A model generated the notes under the pieces. It saw only the letters and a list, made by a program, of their open reading frames with translations. It was not told the origin of the DNA and searched no databases. A stretch of DNA of 64,000 bases, from positions 2,088,616 through 2,152,615 of the forward strand of contig MU004186.1 of NCBI GenBank assembly GCA_010093605.1, read 5' to 3'. The stretch's first letter is position 1. Every line of letters starts with the position of its first letter. The stretch is from Lophium mytilinum. Its lineage: Eukaryota. A program made the position numbers and the translations under genes. Positions 17,021-45,202 of this stretch are shown here, piece after piece.

Positions 17021-18178
17021 CTATATCTGCGCCTTCTCCACCCGCCTCCCTGTCTCATCAAACCAAATCTTCTTCCCACTCCTCAAGCTCTCCTGCAGCG
17101 CACACCCGATCGCAACCGCCTGCACCGCGCCCTTCAGCTTAAACGGCAGCTCGGTGTTCTCCAAGCATGCCGCCGTGAACTCGTTCGCCTCAACCACAAA
17201 CGCATGCTCGAAGCGTCCATAGTAGTTCGGCGGGATCTCGCGCCTAATACCCGTCGACTCGCTCAACTCAACCAGGTTGGTCTGGGGGTTCGCATTCACG
17301 GTGATCTTGCCCTCAGTACCGATGATCTCAGTCATGTCGTGCTGGCCGGCCGCCATCATGCGCGAGCTGTAGAAGTACGCGATCTTGCCGCCCCAGAACT
17401 CGACGACGCCGACGCCGTTGTCGACGTCGCCGTGGGTGCGGAGTTCCGGCTGCACGGCCGTGATGCCGACGGCGTAGCACGACTTGACCACCGAGTCTTG
17501 GCCGAAGAACCATAGCGCCAGATCGATGTCGTGGATGTTGCAGTCGACGAAGATGCCGCCGCTGAACTCGGCGTAGGCGACGAAGAAGCCCGAGGGGTCG
17601 AGCTTGTCGCAGGTCTGGGAGCGGAAGACGGAGGGGCGGCCGATGGTGGAGTCGTTGACGCGCGCGAAGGCGTCGCGGTAGGAGGGGTCGAAGCGGCGGG
17701 AGAAGCCGCAGAGGACTTTGAGGTGGGGTTTTGCGCGGGCGGCGTCGAGTACGGATTGGGACTGGTAACATGTTAGTGAGAGGTACGTTGGAAAGGTTTG
17801 ACCTGAGACTGGATGGTGACGGTATGGGGCGATGATGGGTGAAAAACTCACAATTTCAACACTTGTGCTTAGGGGCTTCTCGCATAGAACGTGCTTGTCC
17901 GCGTTTATGGCCTTGATGGCCTGCTCGGCGTGCACAGTGGTGACGGTCGCAACGACAACGGCCTCGAGGCCTGGGTGTTTGAGCATCTCATCGTAGTCGG
18001 TGTAGATCTTGGTGCCGAAGGGAACCAGGTTCGTCTGTGCCCAGGCGATTTCGCTCTCCTCGGGCGTGAAAGCGGCAACCAGCTCAGCCCGCGGAGTGCG
18101 GTTGAGGAAGTGCAGGGCGTGACGGGCACCCATGCGGCCTAGGCCGGAGACAGCGACTTGGAGCTTGCGAGGACCCAT
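17021..18178 (-). CDS. Gfo/Idh/MocA-family (myo/scyllo/chiro-)inositol dehydrogenase, 2 exons
   Basis: GLGRMG NAD-binding motif, HVLCEKP, CGFSRRFD and GGIFVDCNIHDID (D-x3-H catalytic motif); intron 17762-17851. Confidence 0.9.
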   Translation of the reverse strand: MGPRKLQVAVSGLGRMGARHALHFLNRTPRAELVAAFTPEESEIAWAQTNLVPFGTKIYTDYDEMLKHPGLEAVVVATVTTVHAEQAIKAINADKHVLCEKPLSTSVEIVSFSPIIAPYRHHPVSGQTFPTYLSLTCYQSQSVLDAARAKPHLKVLCGFSRRFDPSYRDAFARVNDSTIGRPSVFRSQTCDKLDPSGFFVAYAEFSGGIFVDCNIHDIDLALWFFGQDSVVKSCYAVGITAVQPELRTHGDVDNGVGVVEFWGGKIAYFYSSRMMAAGQHDMTEIIGTEGKITVNANPQTNLVELSESTGIRREIPPNYYGRFEHAFVVEANEFTAACLENTELPFKLKGAVQAVAIGCALQESLRSGKKIWFDETGRRVEKAQI

Positions 18179-19156
18179 GGTGGTAGATTTGGGGAGAATT
18201 GAGGGATTGAACGGGGGAATTGGAGAGGAATTGGGCAGAAGAGGTAGAAGAGATAGCTCAGAGGATCTGAGAAGGCGAGCGAGAAGGATATGGAGGAAGT
18301 GACGAAGCTATCTCTATCAGTCTCAACGAAAAGTGGGAGCGGTGAGGTGCACGTACAGTAGCCAGTCGAGCTCAATTTCAATCACCAGGGATCGTCAATG
18401 CTTGGATCGCGGGAGAAAAAGGGTGGATGTAGATGAAGATGGCGGTCCACAGCAGGCGGACGATTTCAAGACTTATAGTCTTCACGAGCAGCAGCTAGAC
18501 ACGGTACATGCACGACAAGAACACGTCTGGCTACATATTTTCTCCCCACCTGGTGGGAGAAGCTCGGTCCCTGCCTCCCCCAAACCTTCCGTAACAAAGC
18601 TCCCCCGGCCGTTGAGGTGTTCCATCCCCGATGTGGCCATGGCGTAGCCAGGAAGCAGGAATATTCGCCTAGATCCCACGCCATGTGGAGTTTTGGTGGA
18701 GTCCCTGGCGCGTATCGTGGCAAGGGGTAAACTCGGCATATGACCCCGCCGCGGGGTGAATGGCGGGGAGCCCGTGTCGGGCGCATAATCTATGTGGGTT
18801 CTGGTCAGCTGGAGGCTTCACGATGGGCAGAGTTGCTGTATTGAGTGGAGGTTTGGCTTAAGTTCGGTGCCTGGCACATGACTGCTAGAAGGAGCTTTGA
18901 CCATTCTCATAACTCCGAGCTTCGAGCTGTCCATTTCCGTCCATCGTGAAGCTTGGATGCTTCAGATTGCTTTTGGCATTTCCAAATCAGTCGCTTCGGG
19001 AAGAAGTTGTGACCACGCGTCGTCCTAGGTCAGGGGTTGCGCAATTTGCATTTGGTAGACAGCGCCAGCATTCACAAGATGGTCAGTGTAGTAGAACGAG
19101 CTCCAGAAGAGAGGTGATGTACAGCTAAGTTGTCTACAAAGCTAGGAAATCGAAAA

Positions 19157-20491
19157 CTATAGACGCGCCTTGTCCTCTTCATCAGTCTCAATGACCACCT
19201 TGATCACCAGCTTGCCGTCCACATCTTTTGTGTTGCCCGCCATGTCGAATGCCTGCACGGCAGACTCGAGGCCCTTGTACCTATGTGTGACCAACTTAGA
19301 GAAGTCGGGGTAGTCTGGTCCCTTCTTTGATACGACCTCAATGCCTGTGGGATACGTGTTGGCGTAGCGAAAGACGCCGACGAGGTCAACTTCGCGGAGT
19401 GCGGCAGCTGATATGGGGAGGGTTTGGATTGGCGTGCCCATGCCTATTAACAACACTTTACCGCCAGGGCGAGTAGCCTGTTATATTAGCTTTCGAATTG
19501 AAGGGTGGAGGAAGGTTCACTCACAAATATAGCTGCTTGGAGGCATGACGGCACTCCGGTGCACTCGAACACGGCATCAACCTCCACCGCAGGCTGACCG
19601 CTTGACTTCTTCACCTTGCCAACTTCAGCTGCCGTCTCTTTTGCTATGGCCAGATTCTCCTCGATAGTGCTTCCTCGCTTCATGGAGACTGTGTATCCCT
19701 TATGCGCAAACGAGTTCTTGACGGCAAAGTCCACGCGTCCGGAATCAATGTCAGCTATTATGACAGTGCTCGCGCCAGAAATCTTTGCCATTGCGGCCAC
19801 CAAAAGCCCCACGGCGCCTGCTCCGAAAACCAGAACTGTACTCCCAGTCGGAAGGTTTGCTCTTCTTGTCGCATGAATTGCTACACCCAGTGGTTCTAGA
19901 ATTGCTCCCAGGTCTAGTGAGACATCTTCCGGTAGTCTTTCTAATTAGCTTCCGAGGACTCAGATCATGGCAGAAAGACCTACCTGTGACACCACGCCGC
20001 AGGGTGGTTGATTCTATCTTGCAGTGTACCTTGCGCGTGAGGAAATGCTTTCGCAGAGCTCCTGAAGCTCATAGCTTTGCAAATGTTGTACCTCCCTTCT
20101 CCACACCTGTCACACTCTCCACAAGGCAACCCGACTTCTAGCGCTACCTTATCCCCAACTTTGAAGTCTTTGACTGAAGAACCCACACCAACTACGACAC
20201 CTGCGGATTCGTGGCCCAGGGCCATAGGCTCTCGCACCAAGATGTCGCCATTGCGGTAATGACGGTAGTAATGGAGGTCAGAGCCGCAAAGACCAGTGGC
20301 CCGAATTGCTACCTGGAGCTCATCTGCGTTTGGTGGAAACAGACTTCTACTTTCCTACATAATGTCAGAAAGCTTCACCACGAAATGAGCATGTGACATA
20401 CAATCCTCAAATCTTTCGCACCGTGTAGTACTGAGGCTCTGATCTGACGTGTATTCTGCTGTGTGTCAGGCGACTTGGTTGAGGAAGACAT
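19157..20491 (-). CDS. Zn-dependent medium-chain polyol/sugar-acid dehydrogenase (sorbitol dehydrogenase family; L-idonate 5-dehydrogenase/GluE-like), multi-exon
   Basis: GLCGSDLHYY, LGHESAG, structural Zn motif CGECDRCGEGRYNIC, FGAGAVG, ADID (NAD preference), FECTG, GVFRYAN; ends KARL. The exact substrate is an inference. Confidence 0.88.
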
Positions 20492-20995
20492 GATGGAGGA
20501 TGCTGAGTGTTAATTGAATTGTATGGTAGTAGTACTGGTAGTAGCAGAAAAGTTAGAAAAATTAGCTGTGAACAATCTTCAAACTTTTGAATAACGCGAC
20601 GCACGCGCCGAGGCCACCTGTATGACCGAGAAAGCCATGGATGGCCTCGACGCAAACCCGCCCCGAAGGATGCATGACGGGCTGCGGGGTTTCTTTCCTG
20701 TTGCGAGTGGCAATAGGAAGAATTCTGGTCACTGTCGGCGAATGAAGCGGGACATCAGACACCGACGATCCACTCACGATGCTCTCTCTCCCATTTGCCT
20801 CACCCGCAGCAGCACGGCCCGGCCAGCCCACGGATTAACTGACGCCGTGCCATCCGTTGAAGACCAGCCCAGGTACACGCGCCCCGATGGCTCTGACACC
20901 GCGACTAAAGACATCTCGTGCTCATGGCTTCTGGTCGTCTTCAGCAGATCCAACACCAGATTGACCCGAAGCGTCCCACTACTACCACCAACACC

Positions 20996-21845
20996 ATGAC
21001 TTCCGTACAGCATTTGTTCTCTCTAGAGGGCCAGACGGCTCTCGTCACAGGCGGCACCCGAGGGATAGGTCAAGCAATGACCCTCGCCCTCGCTGAAGCT
21101 GGCGCAGACATCCTCCTCGTCCAGGTACACATTCGCTCCAACAACCTCGAAAACCAACAATACTTACTAAAGCTCCCAGCGCGACACCTCCAACCAATCC
21201 ACCAAAGAAGCCATCGAAGCCCTCGGCCGCCGCGCAACTATATACGCCGCCGACCTCTCTTCTCCCGCCTCCGTCGCCGCCCTCCTCCCATCTATCCTCA
21301 AGAGCGAACCCAATACCCGCATCTCCATCCTCCTCAACTGCGGCGGCATTCAGAAGCGCCATCCCTCCCACCAATTCCCAACCGAAGACTGGGACGCCGT
21401 CATCCAAGTCAATCTCAACGCCGTCTTCACCCTTGCCCGCGATGTGGGCGCACATATGCTTGCCCAACCTGCAGACCTCCCCGGCGGCCGGAGGGGTAGT
21501 ATCATCAACATCGCCTCCCTCCTCTCCTTCCAAGGCGGGCTCACCGTTCCCGCCTATGCCGCTTCAAAAGGTGGTGTTGCACAACTCACAAAAGCGTTGA
21601 GCAATGAGTGGGCTGGGAAGGGCCTCACGGTCAACGGGATTGCACCAGGGTATATTGCGACGGAGATGAATACGGCGCTTATGGAAGACAAAGACCGCGC
21701 TACAAGCATATTGGCGAGGATTCCGGCGGGTAGGTGGGGAAGGCCGGAGGACTTTAAGGGTGCTGTGGTGTTTTTGGCGGCGGCGGCGAGTGCGTATGTG
21801 AGTGGGGAGATTTTGACGGTAGATGGGGGGTGGATGGGACGGTAG
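20996..21845 (+). CDS. SDR of the gluconate 5-dehydrogenase / KduD group (5-keto-D-gluconate reductase, GluF-like), 2 exons
   Basis: [54 protein letters not shown] (YxxxK), [19 protein letters not shown]; intron 21125-21179. Confidence 0.9.
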
Positions 21846-22090
21846 AGGGGGTCGGGTTGAAAAAGTATGATTTGGATAATGAATGAGTATTAGATCTCGA
21901 TAATGAAGTTTCAGACTACTGGGTAGGGCCTCATGGGGTGCTGTGGCCAATGTTCAGGACGTCTGAGAGAGACATATGATATGCGCAGTAAGAAAAGGGG
22001 ATCGACCTTATGGCTCCGGTTCGCTGCATATGACAGATAGCTACGTGACGGCCATACAGACCCTCTCATTGTTCCTCTCAGTTTTCCTAC

Positions 22091-22460
22091 TCGCGAATGA
22101 CATCGAGCGACCTCATGAGCAAGAACGTCGACCTTTGCTCGGATTCAATTTCCGCAGTCTTGATACCTCCAACTCTTTGGTTCCGCTTTGCTCGATCGCA
22201 TATCACCTCGAGGGTCTCCATGCTCGTCAAATGACCGAAAGAGTCGATTTGATTTCATAACCTCTCATATTTGCCTTTTTTCCTCCCACTTTTCTTGTTC
22301 GCATATGACCTCGAAGGTCTTCAGGACTTGTTAAGTGACCGCCAGAGTCGATGTCAGCTCTCGGAGTTTCCATGTTTGCTATCTTTTCCCTCATTTTTCC
22401 CATTCGCATATGACCTCGAGGCTCTCTAGGACTTGTCGAATGACCTTACAAAGAACATTT
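22091..22460. repeat. Degenerate tandem repeat, period about 105 bp, 4 copies
   Basis: Core TCGCATATGACCTCGAG-like starts at 22091, 22196, 22299 and 22404. Confidence 0.75.
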
Positions 22461-25400
22461 GAAGCAAACCTGATCTACATGTGACCAAGAGAGCCTTCTA
22501 TATGACAGCCTCAGATCTTTCCTTTGGCATCTATCTCATCAGCTCACTGCAAATCACACGCTTTCTTATACTCATTTTCTCCTTTTTATAACACTGCAGA
22601 GAACGCCAAGTATAATGAGCAAAACCCAATCTGTAAGGTTTCATGATTTCATACCATTCTTCATCTAGGGACGTACTAATTGCATATCAGGAACAAGCTG
22701 AACGTGCGTCTGTTTTGCTCCAGCGCGGGCTCTAGAACTGCACGTCCGGTCGTCCAAGCACGGTTGTCAAAAAATGGGCATTCACATCCACGATGGTTCC
22801 GCGTGGACAGTGAGACTTCCTTTCGCAGACCTTTACGAATTGGCGGTGGGCCTACGTGTTGTTCTGGGGTCCTTCCGAATGAACACTTGCTGCTCAGGGC
22901 CTGTATGTCTTCTCTTTGCGTTCGTCTGGAGCAATGTTCGAATCAAAACCTGCTAGACATCCATTACATGGCTCGTCCCTCTGTTTCTGGTCGGCGGACA
23001 GATCACTTCAACTCTCCTTGGACGAAACCTTCTGGGACGGTTACCCGCTCCTGACGCAAAACCTTGTTCGCTTAGGTAGGAATCTGTGGGACAACAAGCC
23101 TTTGCCCGGATATCTGGTGCCAGCTGGTGACCTGGTCAGGAATCAAACCGACCTACCAAACTCCGCATGGATCGTTCCCTTCTTCGGTCTGTAATCAAAG
23201 TTCTGCAAAACCACTCCACATCCCACTCCATGACCCATCCTCCGATTTTGTTTATGCGGTGGGAACTTGTTTAGTAAAACTTGGCAATCAGGAACCCAAT
23301 GGCTCGTCATTCTCCTGTCCGAAAACCCTTCAATTCAGAAACCTGCACTGCAAGCGCTTGACAAATTGGCATCCTGCTCTCTATCCAAATCGGATTGCCT
23401 CACAACAGGCTCCCCGATGACCTCATGGCTCGGCTTCGGTTCCCGTTCTTGTCTTGACTTTCGACTGGGTCGAAATGAGCAGTGGTAGAGGCACATGAAC
23501 CAATCTTTCGCGTCTCGACGCCTCGGTTCAATATACTCCAACACGCTCAAAACTGCAACCGCTGCACCTTCATGGTCTTCTCTCTTCTCTAAACTGCGTC
23601 ACACTGCAGACTTAAGCCCTTCTGGAGAGCGAGAAGCATGAACAGATATCCTGGCACTCCGTCGGCTTGAATCAGGTTATATTCGGTATAAACTCACCCG
23701 TAGCAAGTTGATGGTGGCCTGCGCTCGTTCGCGTTCCGCAGACAATAATCCGTGGCTCAGTTGAGATCTGCGAGTCAAACTCAACTTCCATGACTGTAAC
23801 GTTTCAGAGTCTTGTCGCTGTCTCTCTATGCACCTTTATATTAGAAACTGAAGCAGAAAGAACCGATGGATTGCTTCTTCCGAAATCAGGCTCGGTTGAT
23901 TTTAGGTTCAAAAGACAACAACGAACCGTACAATGGTCCCCTGTTCCGGTCCTGGCACTTCGCCGCCTTCGGTTTGGCTATACTCGCTCAAAACTATTGG
24001 TGGCCAGACCCGATGACTGTCCACCCTCGTCTGCGCTCTTCAAATAGAGAAAGCCTATCTCCTCATGGATCCGCCGATTGAGAGAAAAGTTCGTTGGAAG
24101 GAATGGTCCAGCACTCGGACGCTGCCCCTTGCCGTATCTGCTGCATCAAAACCACGGCAAATGATTTCACATGGCTCTTTTCCTCCCTTCAGGCTGGCTC
24201 GGTTGTATGATCGATAGACAACGATACGCACTATGGTCACCGTTTTGGTGCCTGTCTGGGTCTGGTCAGACGGCACCCGGTCAAACACGGGATCTTGAAA
24301 GCATTGATGGCAATTCGCGCTCTTCTGGCGTTATAAACACCGTCTTCCAAATGTACACTTGGGCCGACTGCCGACGGAATGTTGTCCTACCTCGGACGTG
24401 GATACCACTCGACGGATCAGGGTGGATACTATACCGGAGAGAATGTGCCGTTCATCGATCACCAGGAGTTGAGTGGGTTGTATGGACAAGACGTTCCGCC
24501 AAGCTCCATCGAGGAAGGCATGTAAGTGGTGCTCACTGACGATACACGTCGCTATCAAACTAGAGAGAGTTTGACTTCCCCTACAAGCAGCTGGTCTTTC
24601 CGTGGCGTAGGGGATAAGTAGCCGTTCTGTCGGTGACACTAACAGCTTGCCCCTTATACATCTGGAACAAGATAGTGGTTATACGTTGTCCAAGCAAGTT
24701 TTCCGGCGCGTCGGACCTGATCCCTTGACTCTATATCTAGCATCTGCCGAGAATCAAATACTGGAAGCAGAGCTCAATGGAGATTAAGTCAAAAGAGCGA
24801 GTACAGACAACCGATGGACCAGCGACTGAACCGAGCAGTATAAGCATCGCAAGCGTTTCACTTTGCCCTGTGAAGTGGTAGTACTACAAAATCGCTTCTC
24901 AGTGACGGCGTTCAAATCTGAGCACACCCTCTTGCCGTGGAGTGACATAAAAAATCTAGACCCGAAGAAGCTGATGGCTCGAGACCGGCATCTGGACCTC
25001 TATTTACCATCTGGCAGGCAGTCAAACTGGAAAGGGAAAAGAGACATGCAGTGGTGCATCAGTGCTCAGCTTTATTCACCTAAGAAGAACAGCTAGCCTA
25101 CTGAGCGACCCGTTATAACCGAACTGCGACTCCGAGAATTCGACAATCATCGATTCACCGCCACGAAGTCTATGGTTTCTCTAGTCTGAGTCTAGGTCGA
25201 CTATTTTACTTATAACTTCATTACTACTTCGATATACTGCTCTCTTTATATCAAATGGCTATACAAGCTGTCATCATGGTCATGCCCAGAGGTTCCTTTT
25301 CGCCGGATAGCGGATCGCAAAGTCCAAAATCTCGCTCAGTGTCCAGAGTTTAAACTATCTTTCAAACTTGCTGCAATCAACGCTCATGGTACTCGGATTG

Positions 25401-28303
25401 TAGAAACCTCCGAGGAGCTGCTTGCGAATAGCTGCTACTACGTCTGACGGTACTTGGGAAGGGGGGTTTGCAAAACGTCGCAATGCCAGCGGCCATGGGG
25501 AGGACCTCCAAGCCGTGCCGTCATTGGGTGTCTGATGGCCCGCGGCGCGGAGAAGACTTCCGCAATCACCTTCCCATGTTGACACCGATCATTCCGTCCG
25601 GCAACTTGCGGTTCTCATGTCGATCGAAGACGATGGAACCAGAACCGTGAGAGACACCTAGTGATACTATCAACATCGCGCGGCAAGTTAATCGAAGGCA
25701 GCGTGAAGGAGGGTCAGTAAAACGTCCAACACTCGAACCTCATGTCCGTCCCTCGTTCTGGCCGACTCCGAGTCATCAAACTTGATGTATACATCCTACT
25801 TTATATCAATCAGCATCACCGGGTATACCTTTCAAAACTCAGTCTGAGATTCCCGAATAGGGCAAGAATTGAGGGGGAGGGGAATCGAAAAATATAATAC
25901 GGAGTTCTACAATGTCACCTTCTCTGGAGGGGATTGAAAAATGCGACCGAGAGCACATCAATATCTCCTTTTCCGGAAAGGCTTGGATAATGCAACCGAG
26001 AACACTACAATCTTCGTTCTTTTCCGGAGGAGCTGGTATACCCAGCCCACTGATACTTCCTGATCGGAACTGATCAGTACGCTCAGGGCATCTTTCAAAT
26101 GATCCTGAACGGCCAGCTCATGGTTCCAGAACCGGAGCAGCGTTCTAGGATTAGATCAAAACATCCTCCACAAGCTCTGCATGTGCTGCGGCGCAGTGTG
26201 GAGAGGAAGATCAAAAACGCCAACATCGCCACCGTATGTTGCAGAGCTTCAACATTCCACTTCGTCAAATAATGGTTGCTTGTTTGTCGCAGCCGTGGCT
26301 AAGCTCACCTTGCTTCCACTCGTATATTCAAATCGAGCATTACAGCCAAGCATACACTTCAAAACGCCAATCTACACCTTTCCATGGGACCGGAGTCTGC
26401 ATCGGGTCAAAACTTGCCTCAAATGAGGCATTTCCAGGCTACCATGGCCTTTTACGGATGCGAGATATCACAACCCGACAATCAGGAGCAGTTGTTCTAG
26501 AAGCAAAACCTATCCACCCGGAACACACACTATCCGTCTGTCTTCCGGAGCCGTGGCTTAAAGTACTGGACTGATACTCGAATATCAAGCAATTCCAGTA
26601 TCTTTGAAAATAGAACACGATGCAGAAGCCATGGACCAGGATTCCATGCTGTGTCGAGAACTCAACTCAAATCAGCACTTACTCCTGATCTATTACTATA
26701 ATCTACTAGTGGAGGAGGTGGATCAACAGTATCCACCCCACTGATCTATGTTCGTTCGTTTTCCGAAGAAGCGGTCTTTTGAAAACGTCGAGATCGGCAG
26801 TTAAATGTGATTGGAGGCACCGACAGCGCCCGGGAGCTTTGCGTAAACTATAACCCCTGAAAGCGCATCCTAGCTGCGGGAGAAGGGGATCAAAATCGAG
26901 GACGTACACTAGCCATGGGAAGGAGTCGTAAAAATGAACGCAACTCCATCTAATGATCGCACCGCTCTGTGGATCGAGCGAGAGGGTTCAAAAGAAGCAA
27001 TCCAGGTTATTGATGAGTTCCGGACCTTGGAAAATAATTCTTCAACACCACCGAATGGATTGGGAGAAGAAGTACTGCAAACGCTGCACACAAACTTGTG
27101 ATGGAGAGCACTGTTGGGTTTGCCCGGCTTCGTGGGCATGTTCCTGCTTGTGGCAAAGCCTCTGACAATTTGTGTACTCGCGTAGTGGTTTCTGGAACGC
27201 ATGAGTCTCAGGACTTGCAAAATTCCACCCGACAGCTTCTAATGGACTGGGATCTGCGGTGGGAAGAAGGACATCGAAACCTAGCTCCGAGAACTGTCAT
27301 GTGGAGAGCGAGTAATATCTCACTTCGTCCAGATCCATGGTTGTCTGCCGCAGTCACCAGCGACGATAACAATCAGGACACACCTGCCCAGATGAGCCGT
27401 AGAAGTTCAAACTCACCGACTCAGTCATCTATGAGCCGGGAGCTGTTGCTGAGAGTACGCGGCTAATCCGCTAGTGAGCATCAGGATATCAAACCACAGC
27501 ATCAAGATGTCGAATGACCTCGCATTGGTGTATCGATATCCTAGATCTGCAAAAGGTGAAGCATGCGGGAACAATGGTTGGGAGTATCCCGGGAATCTCT
27601 TTCAGGAAAGATGGGCTCTATCATCCAGCATGGAGTTTTGGGGGTTGGCGTCTGGCCTATTTCTTCGGAGGTCTGGATGTGTGAAACTCTGGCACGTGGA
27701 TGCATTGGCTAAGCGCATCCTGCTCGGCTCGTTCTAGAAACATGATCGTTGAGAACAATGAATGGAGTTGGGAGGTTTGTGCGGGTTTAAACTAGAACTA
27801 TTTATATGGAAATTTATTCATCAGATAGAAGCACGTTAGCAAGACTGTTTGACGTTCGAATTGAGATTGACGAAAGGGAAGTGATTGTTTAGGAACATGC
27901 TCTCTAATAGTGCTAACTTTTACGTGTCAAAACAACGTTACCAATCCTAATAGGTTTTGGACATGTATTGACTTAAAGGTCCAACTCTCTAAACTCCGCA
28001 CCCCATGCTTCTGACGTTTAGCGAATTCGGAATCGTAGACAGTATCGTCTACCTTTGCGTACTCCAGACTTGATTTACGCAGGTAGGTTCCTTACAACGT
28101 CGGCTTTATAATAGTTAGAAAGATGACTGCGAGGGAATATTTCACGCGTCTTGCTCCCAAATAGCATATCCGCGTCTTGCACGTGATGTAGAGAAGTCAA
28201 ATACAACTTTTGGCGCTTCTATAACTATTCATATTCTAGAGCCTGGATGCGGGTATCCTACAATCTATCATCAACTTCCGTCTCAATGCAACACCCCCAG
28301 CAC

Positions 28304-35704: not shown

Positions 35705-37921
35705 ATGTCTGCCCCTCTATTTTCAAGCAATGGCTTGCCTGAGTCTCTGCTAGAGCTCACTCAGCTGGCAAAGCCTTCCTCCTACGCAGATATCGCTGCC
35801 TTGGGTCTAGTTGCTCTTGGTTCAGCAGGCTATCTATTGAGAGGAATCGCGTGGGACAAACCAGATCCGTATAACCACTTGTTTTACGAAAGACCACAAG
35901 AGAAGGACTCTGCTAGCAGAAATGCCCAAAAGGAGACTAGGAACATAGCCCAGAAGCTTGAGGAATCTGTAAGCATCTCTCCTGAACAGTTTTCTCTTCT
36001 CAGACACTGATAAGTGTAGGAAAAATCCCTCGTCATTTTCTGGGGATCGCAATCTGGTACTGCCGAAGCCATCGCGAACCGACTCGCAAGAGAATGCCAT
36101 CTCCGATTTGGCTTGAACTGCATGGCCGCAGATCTCTCCGACTACGATGCTGAAACCATCGCCCTCATTCCTCAGACGAAGTTTGCAATCTTCATCATGT
36201 CAACGTTCGGCGAGGGCGATCCGAGTGACAACTCCGCTGGCTTGTGGGAGTGGGTGTTGAAGTCCACCGACATCAAACTCGAAAACCTCCGGTACATGGC
36301 TTTCGGTCTTGGGAACAGCAACTACAAATACTACAACCGCGTTATCGACGTTGTGACAGAAGCGCTGGACAAGTTTGGCGCCCAGAAGTTGATGCCAGTA
36401 GGCCGAGCGGACGATGCCACAGGCGCCACAGAGGAAGACTTTATGGGATGGAGAGACGACCTCTTCACCGTTTTCCGAAGGGATTTGCACTTCGAGGAAC
36501 ACGAAATCGCATACGAGCCTACACTTTCTGTCGAAGAGGACGAGTCTCTCGATATCATCGACCTGCATCACGGTGAACCAATGCATCCACGAGAGAATGC
36601 CAAATCAGCAGCGAGCTGCTCGCCCATCAAAGCACTGAATATCCAATCTTCCCGCGAACTCTTCAACTCCTCGTCCCGCAATTGCATCCATATGGAGCTC
36701 GACATCAACGACCACTCAGAACTGCACTACAAGACAGGTGACCATCTCGCCGTCTGGCCAACAAACCCGGACAACGAAGTGGAACGACTTCTCCGCGTAT
36801 TGGGTCTCTCTGAGCGCCGTGATGTCCCCGTCAGTGTCAAGTCTCTGGACGAAACCGTCAAAGTCAAAGTCCCTACGCCAACGACCCTCTCCGCCCTCTT
36901 CCGCTACTACCTCGAGATCTGCGCACCCATCTCCCGTGATACCATGGCCAGCCTCGCACAATTCGCCCCTAACCCTGCAATAAAGACCTACCTCAGTACC
37001 CTCGCCACCTCAAAGGATGCCTATGCGGACTTTTTGACCCGCAACTACCTTACTCTCGGCCGTCTCCTCGAAGCCGCTCTCGCCTCCGACTCCTCAACCC
37101 CGTCCACCTGGCCCACTCTCCCCCTCTCCTGGCTCCTCGAAACTCTTCCCCACACCCAACCCCGCTACTACTCCATCTCCTCCTCCTCCGCCATCTCCCC
37201 CCGGACACCCGCAATCACCGCCCTTGTCTCCAGCACGCCCCTCCCCTCCGACCCCTCGCAATCCATCAACGGCGTCACAAGCAACTACCTCCTCGCCCTC
37301 TCCCAATCCCACAGCTCCTCCTCCTCCATCACCCAACCCACCTCATCCATCTACACCCTCACAAACCCCGCCCTCGCCCTCTCCGGCGACTCCCCAAGCG
37401 GCCACAAACTGCACGCCCACATCCGCAAATCGAAATTCAAGCTCCCCCTCTCCTCCCTCACGCCTCTCATCATGGTCGCTGCCGGAACCGGCCTCGCGCC
37501 CTTCCGCGCCTTCATCTCCGAGCGCGCGCGCCTCGCGTCCGTCGGCAAGGAGATCGGGCCCATGGTTCTCTTCTTCGGGTGCCGCGACCCGGCCGAAGAC
37601 TACATCTACCAGGACGAGCTGGAGGGATATGTGCGGCAGCTGGAGGGGAAGCTGAGGGTCGTGACGGCGTTTTCGAGAGTCGGAGGGGAGAAGGTGTATG
37701 TGCAGGACCGCGTGCAGCAGCATGAGGAGGAGGTGGTGAGGTTGTTGACGGAGGAGGCAGGGAATTTCTATGTTTGTGGGCGCGCGAGTATGGCGAGGGA
37801 GGTTGGGAAGGTGGTGCAGGGCGCGGTGGGGAGGAGGAAGGGGTGGGGGGAGGCGGAGGTGAAGCAATGGAGTGAGGGGGTGAAGAGGAGGGGAAAATGG
37901 GGGGAGGATGTTTGGGGTTAG
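35705..37921 (+). CDS. NADPH-cytochrome P450 reductase (accessory CPR-type paralogue), 2 exons
   Basis: Membrane anchor, FWGSQSGTAE, STFGEGDPSDN, FGLGNSNY, PRYYSISSS, AAGTGLAPFR, FFGCR, KVYVQDR, YVCG, EDVWG; intron 35969-36019. Confidence 0.95.
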
Positions 37922-38720: not shown

Positions 38721-39109
38721 CCCTCTCCCGAACATTCGCTCTTAGCTGTAGGCCGTGTACGTGATGTATTGGATGATGATGATGTTGATGATGTAGGAGA
38801 GAAGAGGTCTGGAGGAAGGTGAGGCTATATATAAGAGGTAATGTGCGCCTGCCTGCCGTAGCCCTCACCGCTATAGTGAAAGGCCACAAGTCTGGGCACC
38901 AGTGCCAGTGTATGCCACTGCTTGGGGTACCCCCTCAGGGTTTCGAAGGATCAAGGGCGATGTCTAGCTTCAAGTAGTGTAGATTAGACTGCCTCTTGAC
39001 TAATTGCCGGCTAAGTAGCCAGGCTACCCTCGACATTGGTGTTGAGTGGGCAAGTTGGAGCCGAGTGTGCCCAGATTTCTGGCCTAGGACTATACATACC
39101 TTAGGACAT

Positions 39110-39192: not shown

Positions 39193-39394
39193 AACGGAAA
39201 AGCAGGTTTGAGTTCTTCTTCACAGCATGCAAATCACCAAAATGCCCAGTTGTGTCTATGGAAGCAGTACATTTAGTCTACTCTATCGCCACATACAAAA
39301 AGATTCGTTCCATCTTAAAAAATCCAGCCCACGCTCCAAAACCGTGCCAAGCTCAAAGTATGTACAAAAGCACACCCTTTCTTTCTACTCTTCT

Positions 39395-41110
39395 CTAAAC
39401 ATTCACGGCCATCTTGGTGTCCGGGTCCACATGAGAGTGCATGCCCTGGGACTTGACCTCCTTCTGGATCTCGCGCGCCTTGCGCACACAGGCGCGGAGA
39501 GAGGGCTGAGCAAACACCTCGCGGATGTCCTCGAGGGTCATGCCCTTGACCTCAGGGTAGCACCACCAGACCGCCACCCAGCCGAGGATGCAGATAGCGG
39601 CGTAGAAGCCGAAGGCGCCGGAGGGAGTGGTGTTCTCCATCTGGGAGAGGAAGGTGGAGGCGACGATGACGTTGGAGCCCCAGCAGGTCATGGTCAACAT
39701 CATGGTGCCCATGGCGCGGACTTCCATAGGGAAGAACTCGGAGCTCAACCAGGCGGTGTTACCCATACCAGAAGAGTAGAATCCAACGTAGCAGACCATG
39801 GAGACGAGGACGATAATGGCGGGGGCGCCGACTTTGGTGCCTGCCTTTAGAGATAGATCGTGGTTGACTGGGATCCAGTGGAAAGCAACAGCTGCTACAA
39901 CAAGGAAGAAACCCATGAATTGCATGGTGCAGAGCAAAATCCGGCGGCGCCCAATTCGGTCGACAAGCATCAGGTTGACCCAGGTGAAAAAGAAGTTCGT
40001 TCCGGCGATAATAGTACCCACTGCGACGGGATTTGAGAAGCCTACGAGTGCGAAGAGGGTCGAGGAATAGTACATGAGCGAGTTGAAGCCACCAAGTTGA
40101 GAGATGGCCATGAGGCCGCAAGCGCAGACGAGAGCACGGAAATTGCCAGGGATGACGTAAAGCTGCTTGAGAACCCACCACTGGCTCTTGCCGGCGGTCA
40201 GGTCCTTGGACTCCTGGACGTGAATGGTGATGTGCTGGACCTTCTGGTCGACCTGGAGGTCGGTGGCGTGAGGGTAGATGGCGCGGATGACAACGCGGGC
40301 TTGGTCGGCCTTGCCATGGTAGATGAGCTGGCGAGGAGATTCAGGGCAGAATGGGAGAAGGCAGCAGAGAATGATGGCAGGGATAGCACCACCACCGACC
40401 ATGTAGCGCCAGCCACCTGTAATTTGTCAGTGATGCTCAGTGGTAAAGGGGGCCAGAAATGTCAACGTACCAACAACTTTTGCGAATCCAGCACCAATGC
40501 CGTAGGAAACCAATTGGCCACCAGTGATAGACATGTTGTCCAAGCCAATCATGCGTCCGCGATACTTGGCAGGGGAGACTTCAGCGATGTACCTGCAAAA
40601 CAGTTAGCTTGCGTTTTTCGGCAAAGGAAGCGGGAAGGCGCACATTGGCACGATCATAGCTGCTGATCCAACACCAAAGCCGACAACAAGACGTCCGACA
40701 GTCATCTGAGCGAGTCCAAAAGATGCAGCTTGAAGAATGGCCCCGAGGATGAAGAGAACGCATCCGACGTAGATAGCAGGCTTGCGGCCAAACCTGTCAG
40801 CCGTGGCACCGGCGAAGATGGCTCCGAAGAAAGCAGCACCAGAAGTGACGGAGGTGATCAGTTCTTTTTCGTTCGAGGAGAGAGTGTGACCGAGATCACG
40901 ACCGATGTAGACGAGGACGGCGGAGATGATTCCAGTGTCGTATCCGAAGAGCATACCGCCAATGGCAGCGGTGATGGAAACTAGCCATGAATATCTCCCG
41001 GTCTCGGTCTGCTCAATGGTGTCGAGGGAGTCGAGAGTCTGCCCTTCGCTGGCGACGTGCTCGACATGGTTGCTGCCGAGCTTCTCATCGACGAACTCAG
41101 AGTGGCCCAT
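39395..41110 (-). CDS. MFS sugar porter, myo-inositol transporter (ITR)-like, 3 exons
   Basis: GGMLFGYDTGIIS, ADRFGRK, YIAEVSPAKYRG, GWRYM, PESPR, SQLGGFNSLMYYS, VDRIGRR, SEFFPMEVR, YPEVKGMTLE; introns 40593-40643 and 40417-40470. Confidence 0.92.
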
Positions 41111-42497
41111 GATGAGGGAATAGGAGGTAGAAGACGGAGACGAAGACGGGGAAGACGAAGAGAGCCTAGAGATGGATGAGATGCTCTTGAAGAGTGTGGA
41201 GCTGATGCTGCTGATGATGGGCAAGAGCATGGCGATCAGGCCTGAGTTATATAGAAGTCAGAGTGTTGAAACATGCCACCCACACCCCAGATGGCCCACA
41301 CCAAAATGGCCCACATACCCCGGAGCGGGAATAGACTAGGTTTGCGGAGAAGATGGGTCTTGGAAACGGCAAGCAACTTGTTCCGCCCTGGGTCCAAGTG
41401 CCGTCAGAGGCTGGCCGAGTGGCCGAGGGGTTAGACTTCATCCCATCTGCACGCCACCATTGCAGACCACGCGACAAGGGAGATCCAGGCCATGCAGGTG
41501 CCGCGATCTGCCGCGTGGGAGTTGGTGAAGAGTCGTGGGAACCGACGTGAGGCCGACGCTTGGCCAACGCTTGGGGAGGCGATAGTATCGCCGGGGGTTG
41601 GTCTGGCTGCCGCATCCGCGCTCCACACCCTCCCAGCACATCGTGACGTCCAGAATGCGGGGACCCCAGACGACGCCTTGCATCCGGCCAGGCGGTCCAT
41701 CGTGGCTGGACGGCGCCGCCAGCACCAGGCGAGGCAGCACGGCAGACAAACTCGACGGCGCTCGGCATCCAGCACCTCAGACGTGAGTCGGATCGATGGC
41801 AAGAGGTAAGTCGGCCCGAGCAGTGAAGACGAGCGGGCTCGGACGACGGCTCGCAGCTCGGGCGGCGTCTGACTTGCCAGCGGGCGGAGAGGAGCCGGCC
41901 CCAGTAGATGCCCAGTCGCAAGGCGGCAATGATGGCAGGGAGTTCCTTGAGCAAGAAGTGGCAGGTAACGAGTCTTTGATCATACTCCGACCATTCTAAT
42001 ACTCTCGATAGATAGGATGATATATGTACATACATACACTGGCCTATCACCGCGTGAGGGCCCCTGATATGGTATCAACAACGTGAAAACGACGGTTTTG
42101 GCAAACCCGATAGCTCTCTGGGGTGCCTCCGACGAAATCCAGCTAGACTGCCACTTGATGGCCATGGTCACCGAAGTCTGGTACTGGGTACGGCAGTGGT
42201 GGCCTGGTTCCCCTCGTCCTCCACACCTCCCCGTAATGTTTGCGCCGCAAGTGGTCCAGCGGCTCGGCTAGCGTGAGCCATCTCCGCACGAATCGGCAGG
42301 CCCCAACCCCACACAGGCCAACCCCGCAAAATACTGCCCGCGTCAGCTGATTTAGGAAACTTCCTGTGCGGTCTGAAAGAGGATATCTTCAGCGGCCCTC
42401 GCCCTCTGTTGCTCCCCGCTGCCCTTGCTTCCCTCCAATTCCTTCCAGAACGTCGCTAACTCCCGGAACCACCTGCTCCATGCCGCGCGACCGCGCC

Positions 42498-45202
42498 ATG
42501 TCCAACTCGACTCCACGAACAAGAACCGGGTGCCAGGTAAGTCTACCGTGATGCTCAGGAGATCTGGTCCATTTCCTAATCTGGCATATCTTCAGAGTTG
42601 TCGTGTCAGGTATGCAGTCTGCGAACTGAAGTCTGAATCATTGAGTATTCGCTTATGATGCCGCCCCTGCTTTAGACACCTCAAATGTAAGCTTTTTCAG
42701 ACTCCCGTGATTGGCTGTGCTGATGAAGATGCTCTCCAGGTGATGAACAGCGGCCTTCGTGCTCTAGATGTCTTAAAAGCGGCATTGATTGTGTGCGGGG
42801 CTACAATATCAGATTTCGACACGGAGCCAATCCCAGGTGAGCTTTCTCACGCTTCAAGATTGATATCACCCAATATCAGCGTTCCACCACTTGGCAAGCA
42901 CGTGACTAGGGGACGTGCAATACTGCTCTTGCCCTGCCCTGTCTTTTCGTTTATTGCCATTATCAGATTGCTAACATCGACAAGCGTGGCTAACCAAAAG
43001 GGCTCTGGTCTCACCAAGTGCGACTACGACTTCGCCGAGAATCAGCCCTGGTGCCGGACAACACACACCCTCAGCTTCGTGGACGAGACTCAGGAACTGG
43101 TCAACATCTACGACCGCGACTCTGAGCCAGAGAATACGAACAATGCCGCCACTCCCGCCGAGTGGAATGGCAGCGTCCGCTCGGCCCCTGACTCTTTCAT
43201 GGTTCCCACTCCGTCAGCCACTTCTCACCCCACACCTCTCAAGACCAACAGCATAGACACCCCCAACACGTTCGATATTCCCTCACCCGCCAAAAGACGG
43301 AAGCTAGACTCGCCTTTCAACTTCTCCGATGTCTTCCATAACTCTCCAGACAGCAACTCTCGCCTGGTATCCTCTCCTGTAGCTAGTCATCACCGCCTCC
43401 GGGATTCGTTCTCTACTACTTCCGGCCACGAGCCCTTTCGGGATATACTAAACGGGGCCGACAGCTTCGAGCCGCTGGAACCAACAGATTCCCACTGCAG
43501 CGACTTTGCCACGGGCTACTCGGCTGTCTCAGAGACTCTGGCCAGGATCTACCTGGAGACACCGGCCTGGCCGCTGCAGGACCGACACGAGGCCCACTTA
43601 ATGCGGTACTTCATCGACAATCTGGCCACCTCGTTTGATTTGTGTGATCCCGATCGCCACTTTGCTCTAGTGGTCCCACAGAGGGCCGCTGTGTGTCCGA
43701 CGCTCCTGAATGCCATCTTTGCGGCGTCTGCAAGGCATCTGAGCCGAGTCTGCGAGTTCGATCCGTATGTGGCTGACAGATACCACCAAGAATGTCTGAA
43801 GCATCTCATTCCGATGCTGAACGATACTGCGGCTATCATGGACGAGAATCTACTCGCCGCTACTGTGATATTACGCTTTTTGGAGGAAGTTGAAGGTAGG
43901 GCGTCCTTTCCGTTCTCCATTCTCCAGTTTCCAAGTCTCTCCATCATACGGCCCTCTCTCTTCCTCGGAGGGGTGATTGTCCGCCAGTAGAGGAGTGGAG
44001 GTCTCGTGATGTGATCACCTCTGCGCTACCTTTGATGGTATCTCCTAGCCCTGGTTCATCGAGTTAGACTTTGCTCTGTGCATCGAGAGAAGATCCTACC
44101 CTCATTCTCCACGCGATCTACTGCACACTCCCTGAATCGGGAGCCGATATTCACTCCCATAGTCAGGTGGACAGGCAGCCCATGGCATTGGGCAGCAAGC
44201 ACATCAACAGTCTCGACCTCTCACTAACATCCCACAGTCCCGGTCTCAGGCACCGACACGCAGTCCCACCTAATCGGGACCCACATCTTCATCAGCGCAC
44301 AAGAGTCCTCGACCGTACTCGGCGGCCTGCGCCAAGCCGCCTTCTGGGTCGGTCTACGGCAGGAGGTGTACATGGCCTTTGTTAATCAGCGCTCCATCCT
44401 GCCCGCCCTGTCCCACTGTAACATCGACCGCTCCTTCGAGCCCGCCTCCGACTGCGTGTGGGCCAACCGCATTGTCGTCTTCTGCGCGGATGTGCTGCGG
44501 TACTGCTTCGGCGACACGGAGAACAGCACTAATAGAGACAGTGTGGCGACCTATAATCAGCTCGTCGAGTATAGCCAGGAATGGGCGGCGTACAAGCCGG
44601 ACTCGTTCCGGCCGATCTTTTATCGCGAGGCCAAGAGGGTCGCGGGGCCGGCGGGGGCTGATGCGTCGGGGTTTTTCCCGGAGGTGTGGTTGTTGAGTGA
44701 TAGTGTGGTGACTGGGCTGCAGCATTATCACCTTGCGAGGATACTGTTGACGGCGCATAACCCCAAGGTGCCGAGGTTGGGGCCGGCGCAGAGGGCGGCG
44801 TTGAGGATTATGGATGTTAGTTTCAGGCTGGCCCTGTTGAGAGTCACCCGTTGAAGTGAAGCATTACTGACAACGAGATAGGAGGAGATTAAAACCGATG
44901 TCCGTACGCTTTGTGGAATGGCAGAGTCGAACTCGAAGACTCCGCCGAACTATGTGTAAGTATTTCCTTGAGAGCTCGCCCTCCTTCTCTTGGGCCCCCT
45001 CTCCTGCCTGGCACCATCTGTCGCTTTCCTAATGCCTTGCAGGACCGCATCAATGGCCATAGCCATGGCCGGCGACCGCTTCACCGAACGCGCCGAGCAA
45101 GAAGCCCTGCTAGACATCATCCTGAAAACGGAGAAGATCCATGCCTGGCCGACCAGCACGGCCCAGACGCACTTGAAAGAGGCGTGGGGATGGGCGGAGT
45201 GA
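42498..45202 (+). CDS. Zn(II)2Cys6 transcription factor with fungal-specific C-terminal domain, 8 exons including two micro-exons
   Basis: Exons 42498-42536, 42596-42609, 42676-42686, 42740-42836, 42985-43895, 44238-44815, 44882-44955 and 45043-45202 assemble RTRTGCQSCRVRHLKCDEQRPSCSRCLKSGIDC, followed by EAHLMRYF...FDLCD...LLNAIFAASARHL...AAFWVGLRQEV. Confidence 0.88.

Follow-up and report, generated by a model that had tools for sequence, protein, structure and literature searches.

Does the group of nine genes located between positions 17021 and 45202 of a 64,000-nucleotide stretch of Lophium mytilinum DNA (hereafter the window) serve as one unit for the utilisation of plant cyclitols, or did genes of separate functions come to lie side by side? 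A first-pass annotation had read them as a single module, leading from uptake of a modified inositol to gluconate, and had stated that no fungal cluster of this composition was described.

Gene content and layout

Stop-to-stop open reading frames of at least 95 aa (sets of 150 and 40 ORFs) were scanned with Pfam, and gene models were built by hand with GT..AG introns, a single open frame being obtained for each gene. Nine intact genes were found, coding for a MocA dehydrogenase, an MDR, an SDR, an aldo-keto reductase (AKR), a myo-inositol oxygenase (MIOX), a P450, its reductase (CPR), a sugar-porter MFS and a Zn2Cys6 transcription factor (TF). All nine families gave Pfam matches where the annotation had placed them, the outermost models ended at its limits, 17021 and 45202, and eight of the nine genes formed four head-to-head pairs, as it had described. 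Likewise, no unrelated intact gene was recognised between the nine by Pfam on the gap ORFs, and 49 ORFs of 70–94 aa from all the gaps of the cluster gave no match either. The models were compared with a DNA run (X1) and an RNA-like run (X3) over 19.9 kb, the MocA, MDR and TF genes and the SDR intron falling outside this span. X1 was colinear with the window, and intron-less X3 contigs, whose depth over genes was 7–809, confirmed six out of six predicted introns of the AKR, P450, CPR and MFS genes. Gene structures and, at family level, gene identities are established, as are transcription and splicing for six genes.

The first gene (17021–18178, minus strand) codes for an IolG-like GFO/IDH/MocA dehydrogenase of 355 aa, with one in-frame 90-nt intron (17762–17851; Pfam GFO_IDH_MocA in ORF 17024–18307, minus). 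Its nearest solved structures are Lactobacillus inositol dehydrogenases (4n54/4mkx, E 4e-32), and it scored 236.5 bits with the NCBIfam iolG model TIGR04380, under the model's cut-off of 355. The first pair, separated by 504 bp, consists of a polyol-dehydrogenase-type zinc MDR (19157–20491, minus; 397 aa, 3 introns; ADH_N/ADH_zinc_N in ORF 19160–20354, minus) and an SDR of the KduD/gluconate 5-dehydrogenase type (20996–21845, plus; 264 aa, one intron, 21125–21179; adh_short in ORF 20909–21842, plus). The N-terminal exon of the MDR was closest to ketose reductase, xylitol dehydrogenase and L-arabinitol 4-dehydrogenase (E 1e-29 to 1e-28), with E. coli L-idonate 5-dehydrogenase at 7e-19, and among the NCBIfam models L-idonate 5-dehydrogenase came first, a 123-aa piece scoring 94 bits. 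The SDR matched KduD (4hp8, 9e-52) and gluconate 5-dehydrogenase (1vl8, 2e-41) in the PDB, and the corresponding NCBIfam models with 250.8 and 164 bits, exon 1 being omitted from the query.

A 6.4-kb stretch with no recognisable gene (21846–28303) then divides the cluster. No Pfam match was obtained there with ORFs of at least 95 aa or with 20 ORFs of 70–94 aa, and X3 contig depth was 0–3 over 22164–27475. One 75-nt direct repeat pair is present (22266–22445), and the RIP signature is absent, TpA/ApT being 0.67, in the same range as the whole window (0.70).

The AKR and MIOX genes follow, 1220 bp apart. The AKR gene (28304–29330, minus; 305 aa; Aldo_ket_red in ORF 28314–29603, minus) contains two introns (28489–28540 and 28922–28978), both borne out by an X3 contig over 27900–29653, and its start codon is ambiguous, with a second in-frame ATG 69 nt upstream. 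Its nearest solved structures are aldose/aldehyde reductases (E 5e-64) and its top NCBIfam model is DkgA. MIOX (30551–31522, plus; 323 aa) is a single exon, spanned by an unspliced X3 contig over 29789–31505, and PF05153 matched with its full profile (8e-126, 419 bits; ORF 30461–31519, plus). It shares 98% identity with the MIOX of Mytilinidion resinicola, and 75–86% with the other MIOX among the matches listed. This canonical MIOX is placed 1.6 kb from the P450.

The P450, of the CYP630 family (33103–34745, minus; 529 aa; p450 in ORF 33106–34437, minus), and the CPR2-type NADPH-cytochrome P450 reductase (35705–37921, plus; 721 aa, N-terminal membrane anchor; Flavodoxin_1/FAD_binding_1/NAD_binding_1 in ORF 36020–37918, plus) have one X3-confirmed intron each (34426–34478 and 35969–36019). 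Exon 2 of the CPR is 100% identical to a 721-aa 'putative NADPH-cytochrome P450 reductase' of Lophium mytilinum. The P450 shares 64–94% identity with its best 120 homologues, Pezizomycotina-wide; the best Grosmannia clavigera and Ophiostoma piceae matches stand at 65% and 66%, and at 73% to one another. The 959 bp between the two genes (34746–35704) make up a common divergent promoter, with a conserved element, TGTGGGGTAA, at about 35380. This 10-mer or a near copy was found in 8 of 16 P450-CPR intergenic regions compared, where 8-mers reached 8–9 of the 16 regions against a maximum of 6 across 30 shuffles. It was not found in the four other promoters of the window, and no k-mer of at least 8 nt was common to all five.

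In the last pair, 1369 bp apart, the sugar-porter MFS gene (39395–41110, minus; 536 aa; Sugar_tr in ORF 39398–41257, minus) has two X3-confirmed introns (40417–40470, 40593–40643). The Zn2Cys6/Fungal_trans_2 TF gene (42480–45202, plus; 633 aa; Fungal_trans_2 in ORF 42659–43987, plus) was modelled with 8 exons, and its Zn2Cys6 finger is present only in a model that admits two tiny ones, 14 and 11 nt long. The exon boundary that comes after these, at residue 28/29, is also present in the orthologues from two environmental loci, L003 and L054.

A conserved core with lineage-specific insertions

The P450 and CPR are the published CYP630-CPR2 pair (PMC4368105, PMC3680317), reported to be adjacent in about 30% of 204 genomes (PMC4368105). 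Its reported neighbours, a myo-inositol transporter, an ArcA-like TF and a Rossmann-fold dehydrogenase, are known in O. piceae, G. clavigera, Fusarium graminearum and aspergilli (PMC3680317, PMC4368105). 'Cluster 8' of O. piceae groups a myo-inositol transporter, an ArcA-like protein, a P450, a CPR and a Rossmann-fold protein (PMC3680317, Table 4). Our MFS is the orthologue of that transporter, a label which comes from annotation in PMC3680317 and not from an assay; the Atlas and NCBIfam (TIGR00879) labels are 'sugar porter' only. The idea of an undescribed cluster holds only in part; the MIOX/AKR and MDR/SDR additions are not mentioned where these two papers deal with the cluster.

Next, 58 non-redundant environmental CYP630-like loci were compared, 18 of them with at least 10 kb of flank. 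In these 18, CYP630 was accompanied by CPR in 14 cases, TF in 15, MFS in 11 (50–81% identity to ours) and MocA in 3; over the 58 loci, MocA orthologues (62–82% identity) adjoined CYP630 in 7. Membership was kept while gene order varied (L003, L005, L014 and L077). P450 and CPR also have adjacent locus tags in Meristemomyces (LTR85_001294/5), Pycnora (M1827_005156/5) and Cosmosporella (Fc.00g039480/90). The conserved core thus consists of the P450, the CPR, the inositol-transporter-like MFS and the Zn2Cys6 TF, with the IolG-like dehydrogenase in a subset. MIOX, MDR and SDR were found beside CYP630 in none of the 58 loci (0/18 among the well-flanked), and AKR in one (0/18), a similar AKR adjoining the cluster in L054. 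The nine genes are therefore not one conserved unit. Since the four genes are missing from all 18 well-flanked loci, we conclude that these two pairs, MIOX/AKR and MDR/SDR, were inserted between MocA and P450 in this lineage specifically.

The records of MIOX, P450 and CPR in Lepidopterella palustris all cite a 24,347-bp contig, and the close relatives Mytilinidion and Lepidopterella probably share the MIOX linkage. MIOX and CPR locus tags are far apart in Neofusicoccum ribis and Elasticomyces elasticus, so that the linkage could be a local accident. Chance juxtaposition is a possible, though rather doubtful, explanation. On this view CYP630-CPR2, together with the porter and the regulator, would perform oleic-acid omega-hydroxylation, for fatty-acid overflow or detoxification. 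The MIOX+AKR pair, leading from inositol to L-gulonate, and the MDR+SDR pair, for steps of sugar-acid metabolism, would be separately regulated and would have arrived by a rearrangement in an ancestor that Lophium shares with its relatives. Their absence from environmental loci (MIOX, MDR and SDR), the distant tags in these two other Dothideomycetes, promoters sharing no word, a P450-CPR element confined to its own promoter and the empty 6.4-kb gap all argue for it. Nevertheless, it is unlikely that the single canonical MIOX came by chance to within 2 kb of a cluster that already contained inositol-type genes, and a fatty-acid route has no need of two members of the core, the inositol-transporter-like porter and the IolG-like dehydrogenase.

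Fatty acids or cyclitols

The function assigned to CYP630-CPR2 is oleic-acid omega-hydroxylation (PMC4368105, PMC3680317). In vitro, GsCYP630B18 hydroxylates oleic acid, and expression of the G. clavigera genes increases on triglyceride as well as on oleic acid (PMC4368105), which again favours juxtaposition. However, the reported substrate panel consists of nine fatty acids, without kinetics (PMC4368105), and neither a fatty-alcohol oxidase nor an aldehyde dehydrogenase was a recurrent neighbour of the core (95 ORFs of at least 160 aa, 12 of the 18 long loci). Moreover, induction by olive oil or triglyceride is 4 to 23 times that by oleic acid in both Ophiostomatales species, and the strongest inducer in O. 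piceae is pine sawdust.

The O. piceae comparison uses single values for 8 conditions, from rows hand-picked in a published differential-expression table. On mannose, olive oil, oleic acid and sawdust, values were 3.9, 47, 7.9 and 84 for the cluster P450, 0.24, 48, 4.9 and 41 for the cluster transporter, and 7.4, 45, 4.6 and 126 for the MIOX gene OPP_06612, which is unlinked. The unlinked MIOX thus shares the pattern of the CYP630 cluster, with values on pine sawdust and olive oil much higher than on oleic acid (r 0.85–0.87 over the 8 conditions), a point against juxtaposition. The neighbouring TF gene OPP_02429 differs, with a fatty-acid pattern (123, 180, 8.3).

On balance, we lean towards the view that the enlarged cluster works as a unit for cyclitol utilisation, built on the CYP630-CPR2 core and including the P450/CPR2 step; it is plausible that the cluster as a whole has such a role. 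Substrates, P450 reaction and co-regulation are here inferred. The MFS porter would bring in a cyclitol, from which the ER-bound P450/CPR2 would remove a substituent, or to which it would add one, to give plain inositol. Our leading guess is that a methyl-inositol of plant origin, for example D-pinitol, is O-demethylated at this step. The IolG-like enzyme may interconvert inositol isomers via inosose, MIOX would open the ring to D-glucuronate, the AKR would reduce the latter to L-gulonate, and the MDR and SDR may carry out late steps, from L-idonate to 5-keto-D-gluconate and D-gluconate. Two steps, from L-gulonate to L-idonate, are not encoded in the window. Because Pfam ORF scans of the window found no 2-keto-L-gulonate reductase or D-2-hydroxyacid dehydrogenase (GluC/GluD type), the pathway to gluconate, proposed as an uptake-to-gluconate module, is incomplete. 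In no fungus is the L-gulonate 2-dehydrogenase step known (PMC5814732). Overall, the first-pass annotation had genes and layout right and a reasonable cyclitol theme, but novelty, unity and a complete pathway were overstated.

A cyclitol-related cluster whose P450 is not a demethylase seems improbable to us. The enzyme might hydroxylate a deoxy-inositol of the quercitol or viburnitol type to inositol, or its substrate might be a lipid that contains inositol, or some other hydrophobic compound of plant origin, transporter and dehydrogenase dealing with the released inositol. The linkage and expression evidence applies here equally, a C18 lipid is accepted by the enzyme in vitro, and induction of both cluster and MIOX by olive oil would fit either a lipid of this kind or some minor constituent of the oil. 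Yet the evidence singles out no particular substrate, and among the same 95 ORFs the core has no recurrent glycosidase, lipase, phosphatase or acyltransferase neighbour. We also know of no precedent for C-H hydroxylation of a very polar cyclitol by a P450.

The O-methyl-cyclitol idea gains from the co-expression of MIOX with the CYP630 cluster in O. piceae. Inositol-breakdown genes inside a conserved CYP630 cluster hint that a cluster so far linked to fatty acids may serve plant cyclitols.

Comparison with known systems

At family level, the AKR, the polyol/L-idonate-type MDR and the 264-aa SDR resemble the D-glucuronate pathway of Aspergillus niger (GaaA, GluC/GluD, GluE, GluF), where GluF is a 265-aa SDR (PMC5814732). 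GluE pairs there with GluD, across a bidirectional gluD-gluE promoter of 455 bp (PMC5306355), whereas here GluC/GluD is missing and the MDR is paired with the SDR, across 504 bp. MIOX is not described as a member of the A. niger cluster.

In Leptographium procerum, D-pinitol use requires MIOX and iolT1 (PMC9788770), and the functions invoked there, an inositol porter, an inositol dehydrogenase (iolG), MIOX and a P450 postulated to act ahead of ring cleavage, all have counterparts here. The deduced demethylase was not found, single knock-outs of three 'pisatin demethylase' P450s being without effect (PMC9788770), from which the O-methyl-cyclitol idea also gains. In the relevant parts of that report CYP630/CPR2 is not considered, nor is clustering reported. 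Bacterial P450s demethylate 6-O-methyl-D-galactose (PMC6292453): in marine Bacteroidota, a P450 with its own electron donor, inside a sugar-utilisation locus, releases plain sugar and formaldehyde by oxidative O-demethylation. That soluble three-component system differs from an ER-bound eukaryotic P450/CPR, and the analogy is one of mechanism only.

The CYP630-CPR2 cluster itself (GsCYP630B18/GsCPR2; 'cluster 8', OPP_02424-02428) has a published role in fatty-acid hydroxylation, not cyclitol use, and differs from the Lophium locus, where MIOX+AKR, MDR+SDR and the 6.4-kb gap lie between dehydrogenase and P450, an arrangement seen in 0/58 environmental loci. It shares with it a P450 of 65–66% identity and a dedicated CPR paralogue, in the divergent orientation reported for Dothideomycetes (PMC4368105), and here too an inositol-transporter-like MFS, a Zn2Cys6 TF and a Rossmann-fold/MocA dehydrogenase adjoin the P450.

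Gene content, gene models and borders

Pfam scans covered every stop-to-stop ORF of 95 aa or longer in the whole window (150 + 40 = 190). The nine families announced by the first-pass annotation were all found where it had placed them: GFO_IDH_MocA (MocA), zinc-type MDR, SDR, aldo-keto reductase (AKR), MIOX, P450, a three-domain CPR, a sugar porter (MFS) and a Fungal_trans_2 regulator (TF). Gene models were then built by hand, using GT..AG introns with branch points. Each of the nine gave a single open frame, and their outermost coordinates, 17021 and 45202, are the cluster ends previously proposed. The four head-to-head gene pairs are likewise real, with intergenic distances of 504, 1220, 959 and 1369 bp.

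Contigs of two sequencing runs were compared with 19.9 kb of the window, MocA, MDR, the SDR intron and TF lying outside this part. X1, a DNA run, was colinear with the window. X3 is considered RNA-like because its contigs do not contain the predicted introns, those of AKR (2), P450 (1), CPR (1) and MFS (2) being missing exactly as modelled; MIOX, which is unspliced, was spanned by one X3 contig. Six of the nine genes are therefore transcribed and spliced as modelled. The depths of X3 contigs are unsuited to ranking the genes. CPR exon 2 is 100% identical to a 721-aa Lophium mytilinum protein, the length of our model, and the proteins of Mytilinidion resinicola are 94% (P450) and 98% (MIOX) identical to those of the window. 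The AKR transcript contig reaches at least 323 nt 5′ of the chosen ATG (window 29331-29653). An alternative in-frame ATG, 69 nt further 5′, would lengthen AKR by 23 residues; its start is thus ambiguous.

SDR and AKR are separated by a 6.4 kb gap (21846-28303), in whose ORFs no Pfam match was found, and which has almost no X3 cover. A RIP or transposon origin was rejected, since the dinucleotide ratios of the gap are ordinary and show no RIP bias, and it has no transposon domain. The gap may be a trace of the rearrangement by which the enzyme pairs entered the cluster. One pair of 75-nt direct repeats is present within it, at 22266-22445. Between CPR and MFS, at 38750-39050, X1 contigs break with several loose ends and X1 depth climbs from ∼146-149 to 265-917, as would be expected of a short repeat, either dispersed or simple; the ORFs in this stretch encode repeated ‘FPSK’ peptides.

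The genes flanking the cluster are unrelated to it (RFC1, ribosomal protein L10, tRNA-Arg, a RING protein and the OSCP subunit). On the left, a 45-nt stretch of tRNA-Arg(ACG) (15335-15407) recurs inverted 850 nt off, at 16254-16298, with 98% complementarity, and a second inverted repeat of 86 nt (14470-14555 / 15847-15932) brackets the tRNA-Arg region. A tRNA-derived or foldback element may thus mark this border. To the right were found tRNA-Ala (51209-51300), an amidase (53728-54971), an alpha-galactosidase (Melibiase_2, 56390-57879), a MAPEG protein (59381-59824) and a WD40 protein (62006-63565). Galactosyl cyclitols occur in plants, and this is the sole interest of the alpha-galactosidase.

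The CYP630-CPR2 core and its neighbours

By the nomenclature rule, a P450 belongs to a CYP family when it is more than 40% identical to its named members. The window P450 is 65% identical to its best Grosmannia clavigera homologue (P0114) and 66% to that of Ophiostoma piceae (P0096), which are 73% identical to each other, and it is accordingly a CYP630. P0096 has the source name of OPP_02426, the stated homologue of CYP630B18 (PMC3680317). Of 8000 candidates scored, 1598 had E ≤ 1e-30; the best 120 of these are 64-94% identical and come from Dothideomycetes, Sordariomycetes, Leotiomycetes, Eurotiomycetes and lichen fungi. On these identities, conservation of the P450 is unusually high.

P450 (− strand) and CPR (+ strand) are adjacent and divergent, sharing 959 bp. 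Their locus tags are also adjacent in Meristemomyces, Pycnora and Cosmosporella, and the two genes lie on equal-sized contigs in Lepidopterella and two further assemblies; by their locus tags the two are not neighbours in Rhinocladiella (Z518_05658 vs Z518_01309). Such a pair is known. According to PMC4368105, CYP630B18 and CPR2 are neighbours in G. clavigera, where they are induced 326- and 418-fold by triglyceride and 14- and 29-fold by oleic acid, and CYP630-CPR2 are adjacent in ∼30% of 204 Pezizomycotina genomes, in divergent orientation in Dothideomycetes. In O. piceae, cluster 8 (OPP_02424-02428) comprises a myo-inositol transporter, an ArcA-like protein, a CYP630 homologue, a CPR and a Rossmann-fold protein, and proximity of these genes is stated also for F. 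graminearum, A. niger and A. fumigatus (PMC3680317). The porter (39395-41110) and TF (42480-45202) next to our pair agree with Table 4 of that paper. No link to CYP630 was found in the A. fumigatus dendritic-cell papers.

The composition of the cluster had been thought undescribed in fungi. This does not hold for the P450/reductase pair, the porter and the TF, which form a described unit because they are published for CYP630-CPR2 and cluster 8; the dehydrogenase (MocA) probably belongs to it too. In searches of the open-access literature, neither MIOX inside a CYP630 cluster nor a link of CYP630 to cyclitols was found.

The extent to which these genes travel together was measured on environmental DNA. 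Twenty-four orthologues were aligned, JGI and ENA metagenome contigs were scanned, and the 79 loci obtained, taken with as much as 10 kb on either side, were searched by tblastn with the nine spliced models. Merging loci whose P450 DNA was at least 96% identical left 58, of which 18 had at least 10 kb of total flank; the loci being found through their P450, the most distant (48-55% identity) may represent other CYP families. In the 18 well-flanked loci, CPR was present in 14, TF in 15, MFS in 11 and MocA in 3, and tblastn detected AKR, MIOX, MDR and SDR in none (0/18 each). Over all 58 loci, the scores were 24 for CPR, 14 for MFS, 20 for TF, 7 for MocA and 1 for AKR, with no MIOX, MDR or SDR in the flanks covered, of at most 10 kb per side.

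Gene order among these loci varies, with membership kept: CPR and P450 divergent, then MocA, TF and MFS in locus L003; the same pair followed by TF, MFS and MocA in L005; TF, MFS, P450 and CPR, the latter two co-oriented, in L014. Kept members in variable order are what selection for clustering, and not inherited synteny, predicts. Of the 258 ORFs in 12 of the 18 long loci, the 95 that reach 160 aa were scanned: no extra family recurred beside the core, and neither a fatty-alcohol oxidase nor an aldehyde dehydrogenase was present.

The five-gene core is therefore widespread and already published. In Lophium, MIOX with AKR and MDR with SDR are located inside it, between MocA and P450, and the MIOX linkage probably extends to close relatives: MIOX, P450 and CPR of Lepidopterella report one and the same 24,347-bp contig, and MIOX and P450 of Mytilinidion share one 1.6-Mb scaffold. 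In Neofusicoccum ribis and Elasticomyces elasticus the locus tags of MIOX and CPR are distant. At 8413-9103 of environmental locus L054, an AKR 64% identical to that of the window abuts a P450-TF-MFS block, its 5′ end toward the contig end.

Enzyme identities and the glucuronate route

MIOX is canonical, matching PF05153 over profile positions 1-249 of 249 with 419.1 bits (cut-off 25); all 8000 candidates scored reach E ≤ 1e-30, and the 120 listed are 75-98% identical. For MocA, the nearest solved structures are inositol dehydrogenases (E 4e-32) and the nearest model is iolG. Its score on the IolG equivalog TIGR04380, obtained with a query that retained the in-frame intron and aligned as two separate pieces, was 236.5 bits, below the cut-off of 355. 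Judging from its sequence relatives MocA may work like IolG; a putative role as the missing L-gulonate 2-dehydrogenase was also considered. Protein Atlas matches were at the level of ‘sugar transporter’ and ‘Gfo/Idh/MocA’. The porter was resolved to ‘sugar porter’, its inositol label being taken from how the orthologues in O. piceae and G. clavigera are annotated. The SDR (264 aa) scores best on KduD and next on gluconate 5-dehydrogenase, MDR belongs to the polyol dehydrogenase group, with an N-terminal domain (123-aa piece) that scores highest on the L-idonate 5-dehydrogenase model, and AKR is a generic aldose/aldehyde-reductase relative. The D-glucuronate reductases GAR1/GaaA are presumably of the same AKR type.

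PMC5306355 and PMC5814732 describe the A. niger route as D-glucuronate, L-gulonate, 2-keto-L-gulonate, L-idonate, 5-keto-D-gluconate and D-gluconate, the successive steps being catalysed by GaaA, an unknown enzyme, GluC/GluD (2-hydroxyacid dehydrogenases), GluE (an MDR) and GluF (a 265-aa SDR). The proposal that the Lophium cluster leads from uptake to gluconate survives in part: its enzymes could cover the first step and the last two, but a 2-keto-L-gulonate reductase of the GluC/GluD type (2-Hacid_dh) was absent from all 190 ORFs scanned (≥ 95 aa, entire window). The pairing differs as well, MDR being paired with SDR in the window, whereas in A. niger the gluE gene shares a common 455-bp promoter with gluD (PMC5306355). 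The O. piceae expression table showed no clear AKR, MDR or SDR orthologues by name.

Does the P450 belong to inositol catabolism?

Of nine fatty acids offered to CYP630B18, oleic acid alone was converted, to 18-hydroxyoleic acid; the assays had fatty acids as sole substrate class and no kinetics (PMC4368105). This is the only assay result, and it speaks against an inositol theme. CYP630 biochemistry and RNA-seq are known from G. clavigera and O. piceae alone (PMC4368105, PMC3680317). In both of these Ophiostomatales, oil induces several-fold above oleic acid itself, and this does not fit an oleate-specific system.

The most telling point for the inositol theme is that the unlinked MIOX of O. 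piceae is expressed in the same peculiar pattern as cluster 8. On mannose, olive oil, oleic acid and sawdust, in this order, single values from self-chosen rows of Additional file 4 (PMC3680317) were 7.4, 45, 4.6 and 126 for MIOX, compared to 3.9, 47, 7.9 and 84 for P450, 0.24, 48, 4.9 and 41 for the porter, and 0.74, 10.9, 2.6 and 25 for CPR. Correlation of MIOX with P450, CPR and porter was 0.85-0.87 over eight conditions, again with single values and chosen rows. The TF adjoining cluster 8 (OPP_02429) gave 6.9, 123, 180 and 8.3: it was up on olive oil and oleic acid and not on sawdust, a true fatty-acid pattern that runs counter to the cluster genes and suggests a distinct fatty-acid regulator adjacent to the cluster.

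The promoters argue against the theme, as the five of the window have no common word: none of at least 8 nt was present in at least four of them. CGGCCCG, found in 4/5 (4 copies in 5 kb vs 6 in the other 59 kb), was rejected as a shared motif, since the number of 7-mers tried removes its significance. In the divergent P450-CPR promoter, TGTGGGGTAA(T) (window ∼35371-35390) is conserved in 8 of 16 loci compared, namely the window, L009, L016, L019, L022, L024, L026 and L061, with 8-mer counts of 8-9 of 16 vs at most 6 in shuffles; TGTGGGGTAA is absent from the window's other four promoters. Its core resembles the CreA-type SYGGRG site. This would be in keeping with carbon catabolite repression, and could account for the ‘induction’ seen when mannose is the reference.

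Limitation of the MIOX linkage to one lineage also weighs against the theme, and juxtaposition of the genes without functional meaning is a possible, though rather improbable, explanation. It has to be set against the following: the conserved core includes an IolG-like enzyme and a porter of inositol type, canonical MIOX has come within 1.6 kb of P450 in the Lophium lineage, and in L054 an AKR of the same type adjoins the cluster where the contig ends. On balance we lean slightly towards the enlarged cluster being a cyclitol-utilisation unit. That its P450 is a methyl-inositol demethylase is a more doubtful matter.

D-pinitol and other methyl-inositols rank with the most abundant soluble carbohydrates in conifers and legumes. 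Use of D-pinitol by Leptographium procerum requires MIOX and an inositol porter, and inositols accumulate when MIOX is lacking; the demethylation step was deduced, and deletion of three candidate P450s had no effect (PMC9788770). No fungal methyl-inositol demethylase is known, and this single study that looked for one was without success. For bacteria, O-demethylation of sugars by P450s is established (PMC6292453). CYP630 with CPR2 could be the missing fungal cyclitol-ether O-demethylase, which would convert D-pinitol and its relatives into inositol and formaldehyde. Our tentative extension, which we hold to be rather unlikely as it stands, is that the cluster, present in about a third of Pezizomycotina, serves methyl-inositol use, with oleate hydroxylation as a side activity. 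If true, a P450 system of many plant-associated, soil, lichen and clinical ascomycetes would acquire a new physiological role, the odd expression in bark-beetle fungi (sawdust and oil far above oleic acid) would be explained, and a route from pinitol to D-chiro-inositol would become available. Lophium would then show the complete logic, MIOX and the downstream sugar-acid enzymes having been drawn into the same locus. Should the link prove accidental, the window remains an example of how a conserved catabolic cluster can undergo splitting and enlargement in one lineage.

Altogether, what the first-pass annotation observed is confirmed, and its interpretation is partly supported. The locus is of value in that it links to inositol catabolism a P450 system of wide conservation that has been assigned to fatty-acid metabolism. 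Compared to the published CYP630-CPR2 unit and cluster 8, it varies a known cluster, and is not a cluster of a new kind.
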